From Torpedo marmorata (Eukaryota): a DNA stretch of 64,000 nt. The position numbers were made by a program, and so were the translations under genes. The stretch lies in assembly GCA_977017645.1 (NCBI GenBank), contig OZ360223.1, positions 29,760,001 through 29,824,000 of the forward strand. The letters run 5' to 3'. The notes under the pieces were generated by a model that did no database searches, was not told the origin of the DNA, and saw only the letters and a program-made list of their open reading frames with translations. The first letter of the stretch is position 1; the number at the start of each line of letters is the position of its first letter. Below are positions 1 through 58,200 of the stretch, one piece after another.

Positions 1-586
1 ACGAAGACATGTTCGGGGCGTCGGGAAGCTCGGATGGACAGGCGGCCCAGGCAAGGATCCGCGGTCAGGGCGTCGGGAGCTCCGGTCAGCGGGCGGCCCA
101 GGCAAGGATCCGCGGTCGGGGGGGCGTCGGGAGCTCTGGTGGGTGGGCGGCCCAGGCAAGGATCCGCGGTTGGGGCGTCGGGAGCTCCGGTGGGCGGGCG
201 GCCCAGGCAAGGAGCCGCGGTCGTCGGGAGCTCCGGTGGGCGGGCGGCCGAGGCGTCGGGAGCTCGCATGGGTGGGCGGTCAGGGCATCTGGAGCTCCGA
301 TGAGCGGGTGGCTGGTGCGTCGGGAGTTCAGATGGGCAGGCAGTCGGGGCGTCAGGAGCTCGGATGGGTGAGTTGTTTCATAAGGATGGGTTTCCCTTGA
401 ATTAGCTAGGACCAGAATCCAAGTAAATACAACTAGAGCTGGAAACAAGGTTTTAAACTGAAAATAATGGTGGTGGTAGTGGGGGTGGTAGCAGATATGC
501 GCGGCAGGATGAATCCGACTTACGACCAATCCGAGTTACGACCACTCCTTCGGTCCCAATTACGGTCGTAAGTCAAGGACTACCTG
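1..586. mobile_element. Right end of a Tigger/pogo-like non-autonomous DNA transposon
   Basis: Terminus ...ggtcgtaagtcaaggactacctg followed by TA (reverse complement CAGGTAGTCCTTGACTTACGACC, Tigger-type TIR) with subterminal ttacgacc repeats; left end lies outside the window. Confidence 0.6.
15..368 (+). repeat. GC-rich minisatellite, about 50-bp unit decaying into about 29-bp subunits
   Basis: Unit gggcgtcgggagctccggtgggcgggcggcccaggcaaggatccgcggt repeated about 4 times, then degenerate copies. Confidence 0.85.
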
Positions 587-4200: not shown

Positions 4201-7200
4201 GGAAAAAAAAAAATTCTTCTCTTTTTGCTTTTTGTTTTTTTCTTCTTCATCTCTTTGAAAAATTCGGTTTGAGGAGATGAGAAACTATTAGAATATATTG
4301 GTTAATTATGATATAAGGCAGATTATTATTGTACTGATTTTTTTTTTAATGTATGTATTCTTATTGTCCTCATATTTTGATCACTTATTAAAATATGTTA
4401 GTGAGAAAGGGAGAAGAGGAGATCGGAGAAAATTATATATAAATGATCTATATTTGTTGTACCGAAGATATATCTCTATAGTTACTTACTGTTAAATTGT
4501 ACTCATTCTGTGCAACAGTGCCTTTTTAATTTTAATTTCTGTATTGTAATTTTTACAAAATCAATAAAAAGATTGAAAAGGAAAGAAAAATCTTGTGAAA
4601 TGGTGCGAGAGTAACAACCTGAGTCTCAACATGGACAAGACAAAGGAGATTATCATGGACTTCAGGGAGGACCAGGAACGACCACCCTCCACTACACATC
4701 CACAACTCTGTAGTAGAGAGTGTGGAGAGCACCAAGTTCCTTGGAGTTCACTTAAATAGTGACCTATGGTGGACACTCAACATCTCCTCACTTGTCAGGA
4801 AGGTGCAATAGCGACTGCACTTCCTGAGAAGACTGAAGCGGGCAAGGCTACAGGCCACCATTATGTCAACCTTCTATAGGAGTTCTATCGAGAGTGTCCT
4901 GGCCGGCTACATCACAGTTATGGTACGGTTGCTGCAGAGAAATGGATCGGAGGTCAATCCACAGGACCATAAGAGTGGCAAAGAGCATCACTGGAGTCTC
5001 CCTCCCTCTCATCGACGTGATCTACCAGGATCGTTGTCTGAAGAGGGCGCGCAAAATCATTGAGGACCCTGTCCACCCTGTACACAGTATCTTTCAGCTG
5101 CTCACGTCGGGGAAGAGATACAGGAGTATCAGAGCCAGCACCACCAGGCTGAGAAACAGCTTCTTCCCACGGGCAGTGAGAATGCTGAACGACCAAAGGA
5201 ACTGCTCACACTAACCATCCGAGACTCTTATTTGTACAAAACAATATTTTTTTTTTATATATCTAATACTTGTCCTGCATATGTTTTATTTTTGTGTGTT
5301 ATGTCTGGTTGTGTGTCTGCATGTTTTTGCACCGAGGACCGGAGAACTATTTGAGCGCCCGTGATTCAGCGCCTCTGATTCATCGGGTTGTACTTGTACA
5401 ATCAGATGACAAAAATTTGACTTGAAAAATCCAACATTTTCTCATTATTGCAATATAGCATCAACTGAACTGGTAACTTTTGGCCCAGATCTTTTCACTA
5501 AGTTACAGTTGATAATTTAAAAAACGACATCAAAATCCAATCATCAATTTGGGTATGAGAAAGGCCGAGAAAGGAGTGGGAAGCAGTAAACTGAAACTCT
5601 GTAAGGGGGAGGGGAGAAAGACACCAGGTTTTTTTTTTTAAATCCAACATCAGTCATGAAACAAATCTTAAGATAAAACAACGGACCCAATAGATTTACT
5701 ATGCAGTCCACCAGCAAACCTTAAGTTTTCTACAGTTGACTAATTGAAGCCATGCTGAAATAGCTCAGATGTACAACAAACATTTTCACCCTCAATTCCT
5801 CAAGAAACCAACATTTTTGTAAATAAACCATTTAGAATTTGCAACATCTTACCCCACCATAATATCTGCCAAGGAAATACCCAACAGAACATCACATCAC
5901 AGGAACAGGCCTTGTAACCCACAATGTCTGTGCAGACAATTGTGCCTATTTAAACTGCAGATCTGCCTGTATACTGTCCATATCCCTCCCATTCCCTGTT
6001 TGCTCATGTGCCTACCTGAATGCCTCATCTCCTTCCACCATCACCCCTGACAGCACATTGCAGGCACCTACCACTGTGTAAAATAAACCTGCCTTGTAAA
6101 TCTCACTTAAACTTTCCTTCTTACCTTAAAGCTATGCTCCCGTACATATTTGACTTTTAGTACTTGTGCCTCTTCATGTAATATACTTCTCTTAGGCCAA
6201 CTCTCAGCCTCCAACACTCCAGAATCCAAGTTTGTCTCACTTCCCCATATTGCTAATCCAGTGACATCTTGATGAACCTCCTCTGCACCTTCTCTAAAGC
6301 CACCATATCCTTTCTGTAGTGCAGTGACTAGAACTGCACACAGTATTGCAAGTGTAGCCGAAGCAACTTTTTTAAATGAAGCTGCAACGTGACTTTCATA
6401 CTGAACACCTCATCTGATGAAGACAGACACGTCATATGCCTCATCTATTTTTGTTATCACTTTCAGGTAGCTAAGGACATGCACCCCAAACTCCTTCTGT
6501 ACATCAATACTCCCGAGGGTCCTGCCATTCACTGTATACTTTTCCCTTACAATCGACCTCTCAACCTACAATACCTCACATTTATTCAGATTAAACTCCA
6601 TCTGCCATTTCTCTACCAACATTTCCAATTAATCTACATCCTACTGAATCCTTTGACAAGCTTGCTCGCTTTTCACAACTACAGAATATTGTGTTGTCTG
6701 GAAAACTTACTAATCAGCCCACCCACATTTTCATCCAAATCATTTAAATACAGAGATAAAGGTAAATATTACAGGCATTGTAAGAGAGGGAATGGAAAAT
6801 AAAGTATCATTATATGCAGATGACCTGCTGCTGTTTGTTTCAGATCCGAAAAATTCTGTTCCAGTGATTTTACAATTACTGGATAGATTTGTAAGTTTAT
6901 CGGGATATAAATTGAATTTAGTTAAAAGCGAATTAATGGTGATAAAATCACCTCATGTACTACCATTTAAGTTCCTTTTAAGGTAGTTAAAAATATTTAA
7001 CATATCTTGGGGTTAACATTACAGTGAAATTTGATCATCTATATAAAGAGAATTTTCTTCCTCTATTGAATAAAGTTAAAAATTTATCTAAAGGGTGGTC
7101 TCTGTTAATGATGTCATTAATTGGTCGTATAAACATTATAAAAATGAATATTTTACCTAAATGTTTGTATGTATTCCAAGTACTTCCAGTATTTCTCCCT

Positions 7201-10200
7201 AAAGTATTTTTTGATCAAATAGACTCTTTAATTTCATCTTTTATTTGGAATGGTAAAAGACCAAGAGTAAGAAAGGAAGTACGACAAAATGACAAACCAC
7301 AGGGTGGTTTTGCTTTACCTAATTTCAGGAATTATAATTGGGCTGCTAACATTAGATTTATTAATATTTGGATACATTTTAAGAATTATCAAGAAAGATT
7401 TAAATGGATGAAATCAGAAATGAAGGTTATAGGTAAACATTCGCTAGTATCTAGATTAGGAATGCCTTCACCCTTTAAATATTCCAAAGTTTCTAATAAC
7501 AAGATAGTTAAACAAATGTTAAAAATATGGTTCCAATTCAGAAAAGCAAATAATTTCCTTAATTTCTTGCTTGATAGTACAATAAATTTCAAATTTTTTA
7601 CCCCAGCTAGTGGGGATAGAGGGTTCCAGATTTGGCAAGATCACGGTGTATGTTCATTTAAAGACTTGTTTAGATTCTAATTTTATTACTTTTGAACAGA
7701 TGGTTAATAAGTATAACTTATCTAGAAACAATTATTTTAGATAATTTCAAGTTAGGAATTTTATAAACTCCTTGAGATTGGAGTTTCCTTTAGATTTAAA
7801 GTTAGTAATCATGGAAAAGGTTTTTACTATCACTCCTGATATACCAAAACCATTGTCAGTATTTTATAACCTTTTAAAAGAAAATGTGATACAGCATGTG
7901 GATAAAATAAAGGAGGCTTGGGAAAGAGATTTTTTGGAAGTTTTTTCACCTTCAGTGTGGTCCAATATTTTGGACCGTATCCATACCTCTTCATTATGTG
8001 CAAGACATAATTTAATTCAATTCAAAGTAGTTCACAGAGCTCATTACTCGAAATCTTTACTGGCTAAATTTTCATCAAATATATTATATATGTGTGATAT
8101 ATGTAATGTTAATGAAGGTACATTATTTCACATGTTTTGGTTGTGCCCTAAGTTAGTTAGATTTTGGAACAAAATATTTTGCACTCTCTGGTTTTAGCTA
8201 CTCAATTAGATCCAAATCCATTTATATACAGCAATATTTGGTATAAATGATCCTAGTAATCATGATCTTACTAATAATCAAAAACATGTGATTGCTTTTT
8301 CTTCTCTGGTTGCAAGGCGACAGATCTTGCTAAAATGGAAGGATGGTAATCCTCCTATATATGAAGATTGGTTATCAAGTTTAATGTCGTATTTAACATT
8401 AGAAAAAATTAGATGTTCAAATATTAAATTAAATCTAAAATTTACTAATATTTGGGGTTCCTTTATCGACTATTATCAGAGGTTATGATTCCTCATGATT
8501 TGAAGTTATATTATCTCTACAGGTCAGTGCAATTCTGGGGTGGGGGTAGGTGGTAGGCTAGTTTAGATTGCTTTAGCTTTTATAAAAAAATGTATTACGA
8601 TGAAATTACTATGGTTTTTTTTGTGGCTTGGTTCTTTTTATACCTATTGGTATTATAATACTAAATTGTAAAGAAAAAAATTGATATATATTTGTAATGT
8701 ATACTCTGTTTTAGATGGATAAATGGAACATGTGATAATGCTTTTCTTTGCTTTTTCTCTGTAAATGTACCGGTATATAGTGAATGAACTGTTATATCCA
8801 TGATTTTATGGAATTAATAAAGAGATTTAAAAAAGAAAGAAGAGATAAAGGTGCCAGCATTTACCCTTGCAGAAAACCACTGGTCACAATAACCAGTCAG
8901 AATGATATCCCCTTTCCCACTACACCAAGGCCAAGCCAATCCAATCTACCAAATTGCCATGATCCCATGTGCCTTAATCTTCCGATCAGCCCACCATGAT
9001 AGACCTCGTCAAAAAAATTTAAAGTTCCCATATATAACATCCACTGCCTCAAATGTCAATCAAGTTTATAACGACACGATTTGCCCCACACACCATGCTG
9101 ATTCTCCCTGATGTGCTTCTGCTTTTCAAATAGATCCCATCTCCACAAATCTTCTCCAATAATTTCCCAACCATTAACACAGCCTGTAGTTTCCTGGTTT
9201 GTTCCTATTGCCCTTAAAACAGGAACATTGGCTATTCTCCAATCCTTTGAGACCTAGCCTGTTGCTAAAGGATCTCTGTCAAGGGGCCAGCAATCTCTTG
9301 CCCCTCTCAATAATGTAGGATGGATTCCATCAGGTCCCGGAGACTTATCCACCTCAAGTCTGAGAGGATACACTTAATGTTCTTCATATCAACAGGCCCT
9401 AGAATATCAGAATTGCCCTTCTAGATCTCACTATCCTCTATGTCCTCCTTGGTGAATACCAACACAAAATACTAGTTCCGTACCTCACCCACTTCCTCCA
9501 TCTCCAGGCACAGATTCCTCCCTTTGTCCTCGAGTGGTCCTGCCCTCTCCCTGGTTACTACTTGCAACTTAAAAATTCTCTAGCTAGTTTTAGATTAGTT
9601 GCACCTAATATTCTTAGACCCACAAAAGTTGCACCTAAAGTCACTCAAATCAGGCTATTTTGAATTTGAAACTGCCAAATTTTAGGTGTTCATTATACAC
9701 AAGGCTCAAAATGAAAATAAAAGCAATCAAATGTTCCACCATTAAAAGCAATGGTTATTTATTTTCTACCAAATGGCTTTCAGAAAGCCATCTAAACAAT
9801 TAAATTCATGTTCCATCTAATATTGAGAAAAAATATCTGCAGCACATCTTGATAATATCATGTATTTAAATTGAAGTCTTGGTGTCACTAGTACTGTAAA
9901 CTATGATCCAAATAAGATCAGTAGAACACTACTTTCAGTCATGGCCACAGCACTAAGAGTTACAAGCATTTGTTGAAAGAGTGCAGAGGTCCCTCCAGGC
10001 ACTTAATTCAACTGAATAATAAATTATATTAACCAGAGTTTGACTGCTCATAAATTCTAAAACACTTCTCTTAAAAAGGACTTTTAAATGAAGTCCACAT
10101 TAGGAACTTGAAATCAAAGTCCTTTCTTTCAAAGTTTTAACATTTGCTGAGACAAAAACTGGTAATAGTACAATTGCATAAAAGTCAAGCTGACATGCAT

Positions 10201-25200: not shown

Positions 25201-28200
25201 TTTGAAGAAAAAGCACAAGAAAGTCAAGCTAGTGCCACAAACAAAAGGAAAAACTTAGCAATGATCACCAACCAAATTTTGTGCACTGATTGTTAACGCA
25301 CCCTTTACATGTTCAAATGCTGTTCCACGTAGAAGCCACTTACCATGCCATTTGGATGCTCTTTGTAACAAGATTTAGACAACAGTCCGCAAGACAGGTA
25401 ACAGACTTGAATAACTAATGATCAAAGGTGACGTTAGCAACTTACCTGGGACTCCGACTACCCCTTGTTCAAGCCCTGGACCACCAGCTCGCACTTTTAG
25501 AGCTCCTCCTTCACCAAGTGGTCCCACTGTGAATTGGAAAGGACTGCCAGGGACATGTTGGTTTTGATACTTTACGGAGACTGTGTGCACACCCATCTCA
25601 TGGGGCACAAATCTGACACAGTAGGTGTGGTTGTCACTTTCAGTAATCTCTGCTTCGATAATCTTTCCAGAGGGACTCATCACTTGAGCAGACATGTCAT
25701 GGACATCAATTTCTATAGAGGAACAACATGCATTAAGTGGAACCAAAATATATCACATTTGTTGCCAAAATAAATGGAGCCTCATGAAGTGCTGTGAAGG
25801 AAGCATATTTGCCTTAAACCCATGCGGAATTTAGATTTCACAGTACATTAAACAGCTTGGGTGCCTCTGGCATCAGAATACCATGACCATGAGAGTCTGA
25901 GCCAACCTCTTGCTGCAGGGAGAGCAAGTGTTCCAAATCAAATGGGCTTATCCAGGGTTCCAGTTGACAAAATGACATTAATCTGAGTGCTTGCCAAGGT
26001 TGAGCAAACGTCAAGCTTTATTATTGCTAATACAAAACCACACGGTTCATGAAGAGATTCCAAAGGACAAATTAAATTAGTTATCTTCAAATTATTTCTT
26101 GTCATATACAGGAGATGGCAACATTAAATTTTAGACTAAAAGCAAACGTGCATTTATTTGGACTCTTGCCAAATTATGAGCACAAGACGAAAGCCCACAT
26201 CTGTGTCCATCAGAGATTACTCCCTGGGATATTTCTCCCACCCAAATTCTTGAACAGAGGCCAAGATGTGACCAGATTACCCATGACTAGAGGGATTTTC
26301 CAAGTCATGGAATGATCACATCCTCCCGGTGAAGATGCCAAATTTCTTTCATTCTTCTATGTGCTAAAACAAGGGGAAAAGAAAATGTCTGTGCACCATT
26401 GCAATCACATGCATGCATGACCACAATTGAGAAGTTATTACAATTACTCTAAGATTTCTACCATCCCAATCTTCACACTTCAATATGAAAAATGTCAGCA
26501 ATGTGCAGCAGGAAGCGTTCACCACTTCCACGATCACTTTCCTTCTTTTGACCACTGATCTCTGCATCTCAGGGCTACAACGATAACTGCCTGAAGAGTT
26601 GCCTTGGAATCAAGTAAGCATTAAGATTGCCATTCGCCCAATGGCAGCCCAGGTCAAAACACTCGTCAACGTTTGGGCAACGGCATGTTTGAAAAGTCTC
26701 TCAGAACCTTCTGCCACTATTGGTGCAGTGCCTTTGGGTTCCCTCCTTGGTTGTATCAAGCCCCTTTTTGAAGGCAGGAAGATAGGTTAGGGCTAAAATC
26801 AAGGCAGAAGTTAGGAGTCAAACTCCCATCTAACAAATTCTGTCATACCACAAAACAAAATCTCTGACTTGGGAAACCAAAGTTTTAAATTGAGATCCAA
26901 ACCTCAAATTCACAGTGTGACAAGATTCAAAAATCCTCAAAGATCAGGGGTGGTGATGTGGAGAGGATGTTGCCTCTTGTAGGAGAATCCAGAACTAGGA
27001 GTCACTTTTTTTTTAATAAAAAGGGTCACCCATTTAAGTTTGAGGTGAAATGTCTTCAGAGGGTCAGCTTTGAAACACCCAGAGAGGGGTAATGAAAGCA
27101 GAGACTGAATGCTCAGGCAGAGGTAGGTAGATTGTTGATGAGCAACAGGGATGGTGGTGAAAGTTGACTACAAGCATAGGAATGTGAAGGTAAAGGTTAC
27201 TCACACTCTTCCTATTTGACAGGAACACCTCAAGGGGCCAAGTGACTGATGATTCCTGCTAATTTATACTTGGTTCCTAATTCAGGTTGAGCAAACAAAG
27301 GGTGCTGTTTAAATCAGATAATGCCAAGGAGGAAATTACATCCATGGACAAAAAAGTTTTGTGCTCTAATCTATTGACACCCCTTTTCTAGTTTTAGAAA
27401 CTTTAGTCAATTATACTCTTTATTAATCATCACAACAAACTAAGGCTGGATTTAGTCAGGCAATCTGACTTGATCAAACCTTTAGTGATAACAAGCAGTT
27501 TTAATCACTGATAAAACCCTTAGAAATCAAGATGAAAACCATTACAGCAGATAGTTTATTTTGATGACCATCAATTCTACAGCATTTTGTATCATCGCAT
27601 CTTTATGAGAGATTGTCCAATTATTCCTCAGCCTCAAATAGAGTTCGTCACTTGATCAAAAGTTGTGGTAGGAGCCATGTTTACTACACACCCAAAACTA
27701 CTCCCAGAATTGATACTTGGGGCAAAACAGAGCAATGTTAGTAGAGGGCCAAAGTTAAGCACCATCTGCATTTGCAGTTCACCTACCACTTCTTTAAAGT
27801 GCTGAGCAGAAAAAAAGTGTAGCACAACACCATGACCTTGCATTTGGGAGACTAAACGTGCTTAGGAAACATGCAAGGAAAGGAAATTCTCACTCATGCA
27901 ACAACCAATGATAGGAGCATGCTAGGTGATTTAAAATGAGCACGTTTTGCCGACCTCAGAATCCATATGCCCAGTGCTGAAACGCACCCTCCGACCTCAG
28001 TGGCCTTGCACTGAATGGGTCATGTTCCTCCTGGCCAAAGCGGCCAGGCAGGGAGGAAAAAGGTAGACTTTGAACACTAGCTGGGTCCTTGGGTTTTTCG
28101 AACTGAATCTGGCGAAGGTCCATACTTTCAGCACACAAGAAAGTGCAAGTTGTCTGAAAATCAGAGTGCATGTGACAGAGGTGCTCCCGAGCCACCATTA

Positions 28201-31200
28201 GTTGGAATCAAGTCACTGAGAGGAATTGGAAAGGAAAGACAGGAAACAAGTTTTGTTTAGAAGAGTGTTAGAAACAGAAAAGCACTTCAGTTTTCTATAT
28301 TTTCATACATTTACTTTTAACGTCTACGTCTCAATCAGAATGCATCTGGTCTAATCTAGACGATTTGATTTTGAGTGAGATAACAATTCAACTGATTATC
28401 CCAGAATAGCCTAAATAGCGTTGCTGCTGAAAGTTAATTTCCTCTGCCCACATGAATGAGGGGAATGCAGCAATTTGCACATCAAGATTGTAAACATCGC
28501 AGGGCAGTGTAACATGAATGCAAAGGTCATTATGAATGCAATTTAATAATACTCAAAATTAAATAACCAAAATAGGTTAAACTTGAATAATGGCAACTTT
28601 TAGATTATTTCTATTTGTTTGCCAATAATCTCCCCCTTATGAAACTCTTCAATTTGGTTTCTTTAGGAACGTGAAACAATCAATTTTCTGTTGATGCAAT
28701 CTACAACAAGGAAAGTTCAACGGATTCATGCTTCATGTCTAGTTCAGATAATTGATGTCAACACTAACATTAGTCATTACATTAATGTTACGGCTTTACA
28801 AGTTTCAACATCTTTAAAAACATCAGGTCTCGTCTCAAAGTAAAAACTCGAGTGCCATTTAAATCAGTAGAAATGAAAAAAGGCTGGAAAGAATTCTGAA
28901 CCAGAAATGCTATCACAGCACATTCCTCAAAACTGTAAACATGAACTAATTCTTCACATTTGTGCCCTTTAGAAAGATTTCAATGCATTGCATTCACAAG
29001 TAAATGCGACATATCTGATTAATTCATTTAAACGGGCTGGATTGAATTATTAGAAGTAGCGTTGGAGGATTAGAAATTTTTTCCAGCTTTACTCTAAAGG
29101 TATTCTTTGTACAAAGATTTAAAGAGATTGGATGCTATTTTCCCAGTTACACGACATTGATTGCTCAGCTGCCATTTAAAATGCCACACCACCACCCAAA
29201 TTCCATCAAGGCTGCTTGGTTATACAGTAAATGCTCTGCTAACCCAGCTACACAAACTCTGGGGCCAAAATAGTTTCACTGACAAAGCAGATTCCAAATA
29301 ATTCTTCCAATCTTACCGGGAATCTTCAAATTCAAATCACAGATGCTTCCAATCATTGTCTCAGAGGCAGCCCGTCGTCTGCAGGTAATGCTCTCTTTTA
29401 CCCTGCCTTCACCCGTTACTTTCACTGTGAATGGACTCCCTGCAAAGAAAACCAGTTTCTCCTTTACATTCAACTCCAACTTCATTCCTGCACATGAACA
29501 GCACTGCAAGCTTTTAAAACTCCCTCAACTTCTGCAAATTGCAGGGACACGAACAAAATATACAAACTTGATCTTACTGCCTGGGGTACTATAAAATAGC
29601 AATGATATACAAATGAGTTATGAATGCAATAATTCATACATTTTAAACCTGTAGGTCTTGTGGATAAATAACAATCTCAAGCAAATTATCTTAATTTGAA
29701 GCAAATTAACTTTGTAGTTCTCATTGTCATACCTGGAACATGCTGGTCAGCAAATTTGATGTAAATAATGTAAGTGCCAGGCTCAGTTGGACAGTACAAA
29801 ACTTTGCAGGTCCTTTCTTCTGTCTCTTCTGTGTTAATATCCACCTTACTTGGGCCTTCAATGGATAATGCAAGCCCACCATAACCTGGAAACCAAAGTA
29901 ATGGATACATTTCAAAATGTTTTGGTTTTGAATATTCAAAATATCACCAAGATTCTCTAAAGGCAATAACAGTGTAATACGAGATCGTTTTGAAAGGAGG
30001 CAACTCCATAGTACCTATCCTAGCTACATTTTGTATCTGCACAAGATTTTAAAAAGAACTCTGAAGTTTAAAAATGGACTTTACATTCAATTACAACAGT
30101 GTACAAGCACTTCCCAACCCGAGACAAACCGTTCCAAGCAGTGAGAAATCAAAACGCATAATGTAATATGTCACAGGCCTTTTCCTGTAATGCACGCTTC
30201 TTGGATTATAAAATATTGGGAAGCCAGAATCTTTTTTTGACCGTTTCCAAATCTTACCTGCATCTCTTGTGTCCACAATGAAGTCAGACATTTCAAATGT
30301 TCGTCCTGCCTTCAACCCTTCTCCAGAGACCCGAACCCTGCTGGCATCTCCAATTTCTGACTGCCCAACCATAATGGTAATTGGACTATTTGCCACATGT
30401 CTACCATTTTTCTTTATGCTGACAAGGTGTTTACCAACTTCCCGTGGGACGAAGGAGATACCTATAGTCAAAAATATTGTTAACATAACAATTATTGTCC
30501 ATCCCCACCTGTCCCAAGCAGTTGGTGGCTCATGATATTAATTTAATTTTAATTTTTTTAAATTAAAAATTAAAATTTAGAACAGGCCCTTCCGGCCAAT
30601 GAGCCCGTGCCGTCCAATTACACCCAATAGATCTACAACCCCCATACGTTTTGAAGGGTGGAAACCGGAGCACCCGGAGGAAACCCATGCAGACACGAGG
30701 AGAACATACTAACTCCTTACAGACAGCGCTGGATTCGAACATGGGTCGCTGGCACTTTTGCGCTCACTGCTACGTTAACTGTGCCGCCCAGATACGTACC
30801 AATCTGTATCTCCTTTAAACCAACAGACCCTACTAATAAGTGTAATTCAAGTCTGAACTATGCTCCCATCTCCTCCTTTAAAACCACTGCAAAATTCACT
30901 TGGCTTTCCTCGCTTAGTTGTTTGCATCTTGGTCCATTCCCGGCTCTCTCCACCATCCCCAATAATGCTTCAACCAATAACACCTGGCGATTGAAACATT
31001 TGAATACACATGCTATGAAATTCATCCGTGTCACAGAAGGACATTGTACTTATACCCCCCAGACTTCTGAAGCTTGCTAAGATCACTAAATAGTGCATTC
31101 AACACCACGAATTGTGCATGAATTTCCAGGCATCTCAGTTTTAAATTTCAACAAGAGTGCTCAGTTTGAAAATAATGGAATATGTTACAGAGACAAACTG

Positions 31201-52200: not shown

Positions 52201-55200
52201 ACTGGACAGAAACCGAATATGGTCCTTCGAGTGAGGGTGTGTAGCTGACGGTGTGAGTGCCATCACCATTGTCAATTATCTCTACAGGCTCAACTATGCC
52301 TGAAGATGGGGAAAAAGATGAAATCAAACTCATGGATTACACAAACCCAAAAATTAAAAAGAGCCCTAATTAATTAATGCAGTGTTCAAATATTAGTCTA
52401 TTCCAATGCATTGTTCCATCAGTTCCTAGTGGTGCAAATAAGCAAAAATCTGAAGCAATTGCAAGTGAGAAATATTGTTAGCTTTAAAAAAGCTTAATAC
52501 AAACCCAAGAAAATGGTTACAGGACAAGACATTTGGGGTCCAGTAGATTCAGTATCCTAAACCAGGTATTTAACCTCTTACTAAATTTTTGAATTAATCA
52601 TCGAACACTTTATGTAAATATTAGCGGCTGCTACAAACTATAGCAACGCTGAAACTGGTGACGTACCTCGTAAGACTATTCCAATTACAAATTTAGTCTC
52701 ATTCCTACCAATCCAAAGGTAATGCTAAATAAAAAAAGATCTTTTAACCCATCCAAGTCATTTAGTTGCATTAATTTATTCGACATATACTACCAACATC
52801 CAGGTCTGGCAACTATCTGCAGAAGATTCAAGTACTAGCAAAAACTGATCTACTCATGTAAATGAATTGATTTGGAGCAACTTCACGTTAACACAAATTT
52901 AACGCTTTGAAACACATTTAAGCAAACCGAGAAACTAAACTTTCAATGAACAAAAGATTTGAAAATGTTATGTCACAAATATGACACTAATGGAAGCTGA
53001 AGAATCTGCTTAGTGTTTCAAATTACTTCAAGAGCACACCCAGAATTAATTCTTCCACTGGGCCATGTGAAATGTCAAAAATTGCAACATGCACATGAGT
53101 TTCTTAGTGGCTGCAGAGTGGCTTAGGTTTTGGAACAATTAAAAACAAGTCTGGAGGGGCTACCAAAGAAATGGATTCTTTATATTTAAAAGTCAAGCTT
53201 ATTAAAACCAGGACAGGTGAGTGTGACAACACGGAAACCATTTGAAGCATTAGGTCTAGCAAATTCTACTTGGTTCTTAGTACAAAAGCAGACAAGACCA
53301 GTGCAATGGCCACCCACCACCTTTCGTGCCTTGCTGACATTATTAAGCACATATTCAAACCTGGCTCACTGACATCGCCCTTGTTCTCTCCTTTAAAGAC
53401 GTCCGCAATCAGTTTCATTGGTCTGCGCCATGGTTGAGGATGTGCCTCACAAACTAGAATAGAAAACCTTTTACTTGAAGCAAATGCGCGTTTTGACAAT
53501 GGAAAGTGGCAAGTGATTCTCTCGACAAACTAGCACACAGTGATTCAAATGTTACAATTTAGACAAATACGCTTCCCTCTCCAGTGGGTACATTCATCAT
53601 CTACAGGCTTGCTTCTACAACAATCTGCTGGTCAATCAAAACATTAAGCTAAACACTCCCAATGATATGATCTTACCTTTAGGTCCCAACACGGTTACTT
53701 TAAGTGGAGCCTTTCCAGCCTTGCTGCAATCTACAGTGAAATGTTGTGGGACTTTGGCTCGTACGCCTGAACTCAGTCCAGGTCCATTGCACTGCACCTT
53801 GCTGGGGTTCACAACATCCTTTACTGGTACCTTGAATGGACTACCTACAGAAGATTGGATATGTTAGTGTTTGGAACTTGTAAAATGGCTTTGGGAATGG
53901 GGTGCAATTTATAGTATAAAAAATGGAGTTCATTAAAGTTTAATGGGAACGTGATGAGCTGAACACCTTCTATGCCCGCTTTGAGAAGAACAAAACAGTG
54001 CCTACTAGAATCCCTGAAAAGGCTGAGGACCCTGTGATATCTGTCTCTGAGGGCGACGTCAGAACATCATTCAAGAGGGTGAACCCTTGCAAGGCGTCAG
54101 GCCCTGACGGCGTACCTAGCAGGGTATTTAAAATCTGCGCCAACCAACTAGCCGGAGTGTTCACGGACATTTTCAACCTCTCATTGCGGCAGTCAGAGGT
54201 TCCCACCTGCTTCAAAAGGGCATCCATCATCCCGGTGCCCAAGAAAAGTAGTGTGAGCTGCCTCAACGACTACCGCCCAGTAGCACTAACTTCTACTGTG
54301 ATGAAATGCTTTGAGGCTGGTCATGGCCAGAATTAACACATACCTAAGCAAAGATCTGGACCCACTGCAATTCGCGTATCGCCACAATCGCTCCACAGCA
54401 GATGCAATATCGCTGGCTCTCCACTCAGCTCTGGATCACCTCGAAAACAGTCATTCATACATACGGCTGCTCTTCATCGACTATAGCTCGGCCTTCAATA
54501 CCATTATTCCCTCATTGCTGGTCAAGAAACTACAAACTCTAGGCCTCTGTACCCCCCTCTGCAACTGGATCCTTGACTTTCTCATCGGAAGACCACAGTC
54601 AGTACGAATTGGAAACAACGTCTCCTCCTCACTGATTATCAACACAGGCGCACCCCAAGGATGCGTGCTTAGTCCACTGCTCTACTTGTTATACACCCAT
54701 GACTGTGTGGCCAGGCACAATTCCAATGCCATCTACAAGTTTGCCGATGACACCACAGTTGTCGGCAGAATCACAAACGGCAATGAGGAAGCGTACAGGA
54801 GGGAGATAGATCAGCTCGTTGAATGGTGTAATGGCAACAACCTTGAGCTCAATGTCAGCAAAACCAAGGAGATGATTGTGGACTTCAGGAGGAAGTCAGG
54901 GGAACACGACCCAGTCCTCATCGAGGGCTCAGTTGTGGAGAGGGTCAAGAACTTCAAATTCCTGGGTGTCAACATCTTCAAGGATCTGTCCTGGAGCATC
55001 CACGTTGATGCAATCACAAAGAAGGCTCATCAGCGGCTATACTTTGTGAGGTGTCTGCGGAGATTCGGTATGTCACCAAAGACTCTCGTAAACTTCTACA
55101 GGTGTACCGTGGAGAGCATTCTGGCTGGTTGCATCACTGCCTGGTATGGAGGCGCCAACTCCCAGGACAAGAGTAAACTCAAGAGGGTTGTTAACTCGGC

Positions 55201-58200
55201 CTGTGACATCACAGGCACCAAACTTCACTCCATCGAGGACATCTACATGAGACGGTGTCTTAAAAAAGCAGCCTCTATCCTCAAAGACCCCCACCACCCA
55301 GGCCATGCCCTCTTCACTCTGCTTCCATCGGGAAAAAGGTACAGGAGCCTAAAGACGATCACTCAACGGCACAAGGACAGCTTCTTCCCCGCTGCCATCA
55401 GATTCCTGAATAATCAATGAACCAAAGACACTACCTTACTTTTCGTGCACTATTGTTTATAATCTTTTATAGTAATGTCGTTAGATGGTTATAATATGAA
55501 TGTTAATTGCACTGTGATGCTGCCGCAAAACACCGAATTTCATGACTTGTTCATGACAATAAAATTCTGATTCTGATATTTGACACTGGATGAGTATTTT
55601 AAAATGCACTACAAAATGATCAAGTCACATTGCACTCTGCATCACATTTAAAAATAATGCTCAACACAAGCCTTCAAAGTTTTCAGTCATGAATCCAATT
55701 GAAGTAGTTTAAAAGTCAGAATGGTGATTGGAAAGTTAAAAAAAATAGATATTGCATCTTGATGTAAATCAATCCCATGCCTCCAAAATGTATCTGCTGT
55801 CTGCACGACATGCAGCAAGAGAATACTTAATTTGTGCATGCTTATATTTAAGCATCTCCATTTGGAACAAAGTAGAAGCACTCAAATTTCTAAAAGGATA
55901 GCAACAGCAGTGGAGCAGCTTGAGAACTAATTACTCAGAAAATTCTTAATTATTGGAAGTGACTTAATTCCTAACAATTTGCCATAACCAAAACAGAAAA
56001 AAATGTAAAGTAGATTAAAAGATGTTACCAGGAATGTGATGTCCTCCATAGGTAATATTCAAATCATAATTGCCAGGAGTGTAAGGGATGTATTCAACAC
56101 TGCAGCTGCCATCCTTGTTATCCTTGCAAGACATCTTTGCTTCTGAAGGTCCTTCAACAGTTATCCCAAGGCCACCAATACCTGCCCCTCTAGATAACAA
56201 AATTTTCCAGTTACTATCTGATGTTACAATATCAATTCTTAGGAATCTTCTGCTTGGATTAAAATAGAATTAAATAATATAGGAGAAGATTTTAAAGAAG
56301 AAATTATTTATAAATGGGATTCTAAATTAATATCAATAAAAAAGAAAAATTCACCAATTATTAAACATTTGTTAGAAATATGGGGTAAGACGGATAAAGA
56401 AATAGGTGGAAAAGGATTGATTTCTTCAAATACGCCATTATATCAAAATGGACTTATACCATTTACTGTTAATAATCAGTTACTTAAAATTTGGTTTCAA
56501 AAAGGTATTAAGATTAGTGATTGTTTTGAAGCTGGAAAATTTATTACGTTTCAAAGAATGAAAGATAAATTTAATATATTAGATAATACATGTTTAGCTT
56601 ATTATCAAGTTAAAGCTTTTTTGACTGAGAAATTAGGTTATGCTTTGATTTTACCGAGACAAAATGAGTTAGAATTATTAGTTACTAATGGAGATGTCAA
56701 TAAATTCATTTCTCAAATGTATAAATTGTTTCAGAGGAAAATGCCTAAAATAGGATTGCATAAATCAAGATTAAAATGGGAATTAGATTTAAATGTAAAT
56801 ATAGATGAAAATCATTGGAAAGATTTATGTAAGTTAAGTATGACGAAGATTATCAATGTTAGATATAGACTAGTACAATATAATTTTTTTCATCAATTAT
56901 ACTTAACACCTAAAAAACTAAAGAAATGTAATCCGACATTATCAGGCTTATGTTTTAGATGTAATAGAGAGGAAGGTTCTTTTGTTCATTCTACATGGTT
57001 TTGTCCAAAAATTCAAGATTTTTGGCTGAAAGTTAAAAAAATTTTAGATAAAGTATTTAAGATTACGTTTCCAATGGATCCTATGTTATTTTTATTTGGA
57101 GATATTAAAAAATTTAGTATTAAGAAGAAATTAAATATGTATCAAGTAGAATTTTTGCGAATTGCTTTAGCTGTTTCAAAAAAATGCATTGCTATTACTT
57201 GGAAATCTGATTTAGATTTAGGATTAGAAAGATGGCATGCAGAACTTCGTTCGTGTATAACACTTGAAAAAATTACTTATAATTTACGTAATAAATATCT
57301 TTTTTTTTTGAAAATTTGGAGCCCATATATGAGAGCCGTGGGTTTAAGGATTTGAAGATCTCTGGATATCGAATCTGCTGGCATATTTGACCTCCATAAT
57401 AGAATTAGTTTAGAAGGTATTCCCCTTATTCTATTCTTTTCTTTCTTTCTTTTTTCTATTTTACTTTAATTTTTTTAAATTTTTTATTAGATTAGTGGGG
57501 ATGGGGGGGGGGGTTGGGGAGGGGAGGGAGGGTGGGGGGGTGAAAATGTATCACATGTATTTTGATAATTTTATATCTTATCTCATGTATTTTGTGATTT
57601 AAAATTTTAAATAAAATAATTTTTTAAAAAATATCAATTCTTAGTTATAGCAATCTAAACACATTTATTTGTATTCTGAAATGGCAAAGTGAATTATAAT
57701 TTATTGACAAAAGCACATTTTCAATGTTGTCCCATCATTCAATGAAGAATTTCTCTGGCAATTAACAGATAAACTGTGTGTACTCTTTAGTTCCAAAATA
57801 ATGCAATTGCTAAATGACTCCTTATCCTTGCAGGATAACAAAGATTAATTGAAGATGTCAAAAGTTCTAACTAGCTTCAGCTACACCTAGCTCCTCAGTC
57901 AAAATGCAGATTTGAATTGAATAAACAAATAAGAGTCGAGTTGGAAAAAAGAGCCATATACATTACAGTAAAAACACAAATGCTGGAGAAGCTCAGCAGG
58001 TCAAACAGTGTCCTTTATGTAGCAACGATAGAAATACATAACCGACATTTCGGGCAATGAGGGGGAGGAGAGATGGCTGGGTGGGTGTAAAAACTGGAAG
58101 GACAGGGAAGGGGGGGGGGAGGGGAAGGAAAAGGCAAGCAGGTTTAGTGGAAAGCAGAAAAGTCAATGTTAATGCCATCTGGCTGGAGAGTGCCCAGATG

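Follow-up and report, generated by a model that had tools for sequence, protein, structure and literature searches.

Does the filamin B gene (FLNB) harbour an exon of a kind regarded as the private possession of filamin C (FLNC), and what does a stop codon near the start of such an exon mean? These questions are raised by a 64,000-nucleotide (nt) stretch of Torpedo marmorata DNA (assembly GCA_977017645.1, contig OZ360223.1, positions 29,760,001 to 29,824,000), hereafter the window, in which an intron of a filamin gene contains a 228-nt exon-like segment with a TGA in its third codon. An 82-amino-acid (aa) insert in the Ig20 repeat of FLNC has been called unique and missing from FLNA and FLNB, and is described as the Z-disc and myotilin determinant (PMC7216277) and as possibly disordered (PMC6530996). 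The original prediction, made from the window alone, took the segment for an FLNC-type insert exon inside FLNB. Our results indicate that this observation is real and better supported than the prediction could know. What stands out is not the stop in the ray; it is that FLNB of various jawed vertebrates conceals such an exon, one that may be connected with heart variants of human filamin B. The features needed for the argument are the following.

29317 to 29439, minus strand: FLNB exon of 123 nt (41 aa; end of Ig19 and start of Ig20), ending CCC G/gtaaga, phase 1
28267 to 28271, minus strand: branch-point-like CTAAC, 52-56 nt upstream of the candidate exon and within a 67-nt AG-free zone; its use is putative
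28216 to 28250, minus strand: pyrimidine tract and CAG acceptor (CAG at 28218-28216), read from the sequence
27988 to 28215, minus strand: exon-like segment of 228 nt, phase 1/1, orthologue of the FLNB Ig20 inserts and paralogue of the FLNC Ig20 insert exon
28208 to 28210, minus strand: TGA stop (codon 3), the sole stop in the segment, at a Trp position invariant in the other FLNB and FLNC inserts
27982 to 27987, minus strand: donor GTGCGT (GAGG/gtgcgt)
25446 to 25712, minus strand: next constitutive FLNB exon (rest of Ig20 and start of Ig21), from the translated exon map

The 228-nt length, the AG and GT borders, phase 1/1 and the lone TGA were all confirmed, and the translation agrees letter for letter with the one first given. 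The phase is compatible with both neighbouring exons, and a DNA search of the ray's own genome shows the segment to be single-copy.

The evidence that carries the homology comes from FLNB proteins of other vertebrates. Among 293 retrieved proteins (all FLNB by label or cluster, bar one FLNC and one unrelated), 16 possess an insert beginning V-T-W-F-Q at the same junction as the ray exon: Callorhinchus (a chimaera; five models), the coelacanth Latimeria (one), the lungfish Protopterus (one), and the lizards Podarcis muralis (five), P. raffonei, Lacerta, Varanus and Anolis carolinensis (one each). The chimaera and P. muralis models are UniRef entries, and the lungfish, P. raffonei, Lacerta, Varanus and Anolis models are one XP entry each (identifiers include UniRef A0A4W3JIK0 and H3B014, XP_043934725.1, XP_062825912.1, XP_053233897.1, XP_032996890.1 and XP_044307318.1). 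Six of the 16 are RefSeq-type XP isoforms or accompany them (five XP: P0276, P0351, P0352, P0354 and P0355), a class of model usually backed by RNA reads. Public annotation thus already contains the orthologous exon in latent form, as unnamed isoforms of automatic FLNB models.

Read in one frame, the ray segment is identical to the chimaera insert at 35/73 positions (48%), to the coelacanth at 32/71, to the lungfish at 25/73, to Anolis at 18/67 and to the lacertids at 21/60, and none of 1000 shuffles reached any of these five values; the lacertid value was computed with the XP models rather than the P. muralis UniRef models. By comparison, the flanking exons agree with those of the ray at 74-82% of positions (103/126 to 95/128). 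A profile of three non-ray FLNB inserts matches 28213-27989 in one frame over 79 profile positions (i-E = 8.9e-16), while the runner-up stretch in the six frames of the window has i-E = 4.9. All five other FLNB lineages in the alignment share T, W, F, Q, E, L and one F without exception, and of these residues the ray is missing just W, where it has the stop; the claim that the TGA falls on a conserved Trp is thus borne out. Some candidates were rejected. The P. muralis UniRef models seemed to match through a terminal S-S-F-P-F, but beyond residue 31 they part from the lacertid XP models, and this stretch is probably intron patched into them. Insertions at this junction in duck, tortoise and Xenopus FLNB have no W-F-Q and look like donor or acceptor read-through.

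The link to FLNC follows through these orthologues. Compared profile to profile, the FLNB and FLNC inserts match with an HHalign probability of 96% (E = 4.4e-9), and none of 3000 shuffles scored as well as the chimaera FLNB insert against the ray's own FLNC insert. The ray exon shares with the FLNC insert its junction after L-K-I-P in Ig20 and its status as a separate phase 1/1 exon (228 nt in ray FLNB, 240 nt in ray FLNC), and inserts of both genes share a W-F-Q start, E-x-L and a P-F...G...E...F end. Directly compared with its own FLNC insert, the ray segment has an end-to-end score reached by 0/5000 shuffles, but its local score is equalled by 59/5000 and exceeded by several other frames of the window, and a profile of nine FLNC inserts reported no match in the window. 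The proposed FLNC similarity is therefore upheld by orthologues, junction and phase, and its direct local form is marginal against shuffled controls. Searches with the insert alone returned little: no true match among 1.84 billion representative proteins (two matches to bacterial-type repeat proteins were judged chance), no score for any of 17 candidates among proteins of 129-2000 aa, a range that full-length filamins exceed, no usable match in the ESM Atlas, and in a metagenome scan a single 17-residue GC-rich match, also judged chance. That intron DNA resembles the FLNC insert by accident would agree with the local score, the silent FLNC profile and the empty search of representatives; the orthologous FLNB inserts at the identical junction (E = 8.9e-16) refute it, and we regard it as extremely improbable. 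Judged by these alignments, the ray segment and the Ig20 insert exon of FLNC are homologues, the proof running via the FLNB orthologues.

The Torpedo marmorata genome has three filamin genes, and phylogeny (23 rows and 570 columns from 9 of 24 exons, insert excluded) assigns one to each paralogue. The gene in the window falls in the FLNB clade (support 100/99) as sister to Narcine FLNB (100/99; 94% over 570 columns), while the gene on contig C100 groups with FLNA and that on C57 with FLNC. The host had been called FLNB rather than FLNC; the tree agrees, and the FLNC gene on C57 carries its own intact 240-nt insert exon in the matching place and phase, with a donor, G/GTGTGC, that resembles the one in the window. 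Frog and teleost sequences considered as a fourth paralogue were dropped, both being placed inside FLNB by the tree. FLNA and FLNB are sister clades (95/98), and an earlier tree has the same shape. Because FLNA and FLNB are sisters and the FLNB and FLNC inserts are homologous, the exon would predate all three paralogues, which extends an origin first proposed only as earlier than the FLNB/FLNC duplication; barring later copying between paralogues, its origin must precede the separation of FLNC from FLNA/FLNB. No relic was found in the corresponding FLNA intron of the same genome (best i-E of the insert profile 0.45), and FLNA seems to have lost the exon. Outside the three genes, single filamin-type Ig matches lie in long open frames at C51:11395182-11395415 and C1:65245371-65245619, probably belonging to TRIM-type proteins.

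How old, then, is the stop? The 73 codons after the TGA hold a frame shared with chimaera and coelacanth that is unbroken. Under neutral drift, about 0.4 substitutions per site would bring identity to 45-48%, and none of the 12 indels listed is a multiple of three. With an indel to substitution ratio of 0.17 (42 against 244 places in two relatives) or a cautious 0.07, some 4-12 neutral frameshifts would be expected at d of about 0.4, and escaping them all has a probability of 1e-2 to 4e-6, these counts being rough and the orthologue predictions selected for openness. The divergence since the frame was released has a 95% bound of 0.10-0.27 per site. Because the frame has been kept since the ray-chimaera split, the TGA is, by this count, young relative to that split. 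Nor is the stop conserved across species: chimaera, coelacanth, lungfish and lizards have Trp at this position. Contigs of relatives about 98% and about 95% alike span the stop; 28208 does not appear in the 40 of 244 difference rows listed, and divergence over the end of the exon (7 in 180) is the same as in the surrounding intron. The Varanus model has a separate stop within the exon, and the stops in the ray and in this monitor lizard likely arose separately; in the ray, the stop probably reflects a recent loss of an ordinary kind.

A young stop argues against an old poison exon, and of the two fates proposed at the outset the data favour recent inactivation, the 73 in-frame codons being the main ground; a selected poison exon would be the less likely fate. 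The ray exon resembles poison cassette exons in having a stop far from the next junction, intact splice sites and tissue-type motifs. Classic poison exons have highly conserved DNA and a stop of long standing, and they require no open frame; here, in contrast, an old frame is joined to a young stop. If the exon is included, the stop lies 220 nt before the exon's own 3' junction and is followed by at least seven further exons in the window, the usual geometry for nonsense-mediated decay (NMD), for which a premature stop has to lie over 50-55 nt ahead of the last junction. With TGA in codon 3, the segment does not offer an open frame for a full-length filamin carrying the insert. The exon also differs from the FLNC insert in sitting in FLNB and in being interrupted. 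It belongs with the FLNC inserts by descent rather than by function. The FLNB inserts as a group have two to five Cys and lack the conserved Arg/Thr/Ser-rich core of FLNC with its kinase sites; R-x-R-x-x-S/T occurs in 0/6 of them, and R-x-x-S/T is absent from the ray insert.

The gene models show how the exon is used elsewhere. The chimaera and coelacanth UniRef models carry it in frame with unstable 3' junctions, and Anolis X1 is the sole XP model in which it is spliced in frame (77 aa). In the lungfish and in two lacertid XP models, translation continues past the donor and terminates within three residues. The lungfish tail closes with E-G-A-F, as does the read-through of the ray exon; lungfish and chimaera models that run through the donor have the same G-A residues as the ray donor. 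The exon had been said to survive in this lineage's FLNB: it does survive, but not in the ray only, as the chimaera, coelacanth, lungfish and lizard models attest. Of the relatives expected to bear on TGG versus TGA, chimaera and coelacanth have Trp, and none of the ray or shark models listed includes the exon. No listed FLNB model of amphibians, birds, turtles, crocodiles or mammals (up to 15 members per cluster) contains the exon.

We favour, at roughly even odds (a probability of about 0.5), the explanation that the segment is an ancient minor FLNB cassette of heart or muscle, still spliced at a low level, which was recently broken in the ray lineage and is tolerated. An ancestral filamin would have had the insert exon; FLNC would have kept it under strong constraint as a Z-disc module, FLNA would have lost it, and FLNB would have retained it as a minor form in which frame mattered more than residues. 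Sites of RBFOX type downstream may turn the exon on in heart or muscle. A recent change from Trp to stop would then have broken it in the ray lineage, so that inclusion now is predicted to yield either a degraded message or a filamin B ending in Ig20, without Ig21-24 and the dimerisation domain. Such a nonsense change would cost little because the skipped form is the main product.

FLNB inserts are only 26-48% identical between classes, whereas from ray to camel the first 55 residues of the FLNC inserts scarcely vary. A kept frame combined with near-neutral replacements is the known pattern of minor-form alternative exons.

At the candidate acceptor, pyrimidines occupy 24/27 positions at -30 to -4, the richest of the gene's acceptors in the window (12-23 in the 23 constitutive ones), and the 67-nt AG-free zone lies near the top of the range of those acceptors (16-69 nt). 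On a small position weight matrix (PWM) trained on the gene's own constitutive sites in the window, the donor scores modestly, fourth of 204 intron GT sites and above 4/24 constitutive donors. Downstream lie two further features.

27870 to 27922, minus strand: RBFOX-type motif cluster, with GCATG at +66 and TGCATG at +88 and +113 from the donor
27737 to 27742, minus strand: a single, weak QKI-type ACTAAC at +246

None of the 24 constitutive exons matches this GCATG count within 250 nt, and at least three GCATG occur in only 17 of 6385 overlapping 150-nt stretches, the cluster itself included. RBFOX sites downstream of an exon usually promote its inclusion in heart, muscle and brain. The two AATAAA (+428 and +564) do not exceed the background frequency of 0.9 per kb. 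The gene's next-richest motif set lies in the intron downstream of the exon at 56029 (two GCATG, one of them TGCATG, and six YGCY in 250 nt). To judge from these signals, the exon would work like a regulated cassette, and now a truncating one.

Several observations weigh against the cassette explanation. The orthologues are predictions: the five chimaera models differ at the 3' junction, the second half of the P. muralis models has a patched appearance, and the four XP models other than Anolis X1 terminate in or just past the exon. The exon is in 0/15 ray models listed (of 21 in the cluster) and 0/5 shark models. The indel ratio rests on partial difference lists of two relatives. Replacements are no more conservative than neutral drift in four of five comparisons (the exception is coelacanth, 26/1365), so protein-level selection could be weak and constraint at the RNA level could explain part of the conservation. 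The acceptor scores low on the PWM, above only 1/23 constitutive acceptors, partly since the exon begins with T. The TGA is known from this assembly alone, and splicing in this ray is predicted from sequence. Contigs of four sequencing runs contain no exon joints; the run presumed to be RNA touched just 3 of 30 bins, and the exon lies outside them.

Some of these points would suit an exon that is never spliced in the ray and whose signals survive only through the recency of the loss. The absence from all 20 ray and shark models listed and the low acceptor score agree with such a silent relic, and with a young stop, intact signals are expected either way. The gene's richest pyrimidine tract, the long AG-free zone and the motif cluster speak against it, and a stop in codon 3 would itself bar the form from protein annotations. 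We consider a silent relic rather unlikely.

It could also be that the exon is intact in the species, the TGA being an assembly error, a polymorphic allele or a recoded codon (A-to-I editing to UGG, or readthrough). The TGA is one base from the conserved codon and all else is intact, and filamin messages are known editing targets at another site. Against this, the best editing duplex for the stop (-34.4 kcal/mol) is equalled or exceeded by 11 of 30 control segments, and the 25 longest of 55 inverted repeats all leave it uncovered; a G before the edited A is a disfavoured context, which counts against recoding, and the independent stop in the Varanus exon shows that such losses occur. An exon still intact in the species is thus quite doubtful. 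Elsewhere in the gene, the exon at 22949-22812 (minus strand) ends in a CAG Gln codon at the place where filamins are edited from Q to R. The best duplex partner of this exon is found about 750 nt downstream (about 22060-21990, minus strand; -38.8 kcal/mol), a value among the strongest of the controls without exceeding them.

The closest known case, which the original prediction missed, is a heart-specific exon of human FLNB. After the 123-bp exon 40, human FLNB has a 147-bp exon 40B/C (GenBank AF353666/AF353667) that gives rise to the truncated variants var-2 and var-3, to which the original account assigns an elusive role (van der Flier 2002, PMC2199218). The ray's 123-nt exon corresponds to exon 40, the 123-bp exon skipped in filamin-B var-1 (PMC2199218), so the candidate lies in FLNB in the equivalent intron, and both exons bring a premature stop and a predicted product without repeats 21-24 and the dimerisation domain; a ray protein that escaped decay would resemble var-2 and var-3. 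They differ in size (147 or 70 nt in human, 228 nt in the ray), and heart specificity is shown in human but only predicted in the ray. The accessible text of PMC2199218 places the FLNC insert beside the var-1 region and draws no link from exon 40B/C to the insert. In a literature search mostly without subscription journals, we found no paper reporting an FLNC-type insert exon in FLNB or linking one to 40B/C, and none beyond PMC2199218 naming heart-only FLNB variants. A pair of Narcine models suggests that var-1-type skipping also occurs in a ray: FLNB X1 (P0253, 2590 aa) is 41 aa shorter than P0256 (2631 aa) and lacks the anchor of the 123-nt exon. Within that exon of Torpedo (29439-29317), strand A of Ig20 has several private changes in the auto-inhibitory segment, which reads T-R-R-R-R-A-A-S/T-E-A-T in related rays and sharks.

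Cetaceans may offer a bridge to the human exon. Dolphin FLNB X5 (P0342) has a 15-residue in-frame piece and orca X5 (P0401) a 22-residue terminal piece at the same Ig20 junction, and these are candidate counterparts of human 40B/C. As a stand-in for the human exon, the cetacean mini-exon matches the end of the ray exon with p of about 0.03-0.08 and a similar donor context. This match is equalled at 108 of 3537 intron positions and by 581 of 20000 shuffles, and is weaker without the forced Gly; a profile test gave 357/2000, and comparison with the lungfish 30/3000. Orthology of the ray exon to human exon 40B/C is at most marginally supported through this stand-in, and the FLNB exon may be the source of the human heart-only truncating exon in the same intron.

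These comparisons bear on another explanation, in which truncation itself is selected: a conserved heart-specific off-switch would remove full-length dimerising filamin B, with the ray TGA, the lizard and lungfish ends and human 40B/C as its versions. Truncation does recur (ray TGA, Varanus stop, lungfish, two lacertids, orca, and human var-2/var-3), and the near-neutral replacements and the RBFOX-type cluster would be expected of such a switch. However, a frame open over 76-82 codons in six lineages is unnecessary for a poison exon, the Anolis model is in frame, and the cetacean mini-exon matches the ray exon end just marginally. We hold a selected off-switch to be unlikely. Somewhat less doubtful, and offered tentatively, is a wider proposal: the insert exon may be ancestral to all vertebrate filamins and serve in FLNB as a heart and muscle switch that was repeatedly made truncating or NMD-inducing, human 40B/C being its shortened descendant, and would thereby remove dimerising filamin B from striated muscle.

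The introns of the gene also contain repeats. A short high-copy repeat at 26955-27010 is matched by many contigs of all four sequencing runs, and frame fragments, presumably of LINE reverse transcriptase, lie in introns at, among others, 2200-2664, 6991-7677 and 53944-54333.

Reviews use the Ig20 insert to explain why FLNC alone is placed at the Z-disc, and cardiomyopathy variants cluster there (PMC7216277). The FLNB orthologues in five vertebrate lineages recast this FLNC-only insert as a history of loss and decay. The FLNB inserts are, moreover, natural variants that expose the ancient residues (T/N-W-F-Q and E-x-L) of the FLNC insert, and for the heart-only variants of human FLNB the ancient exon gives a direct test.

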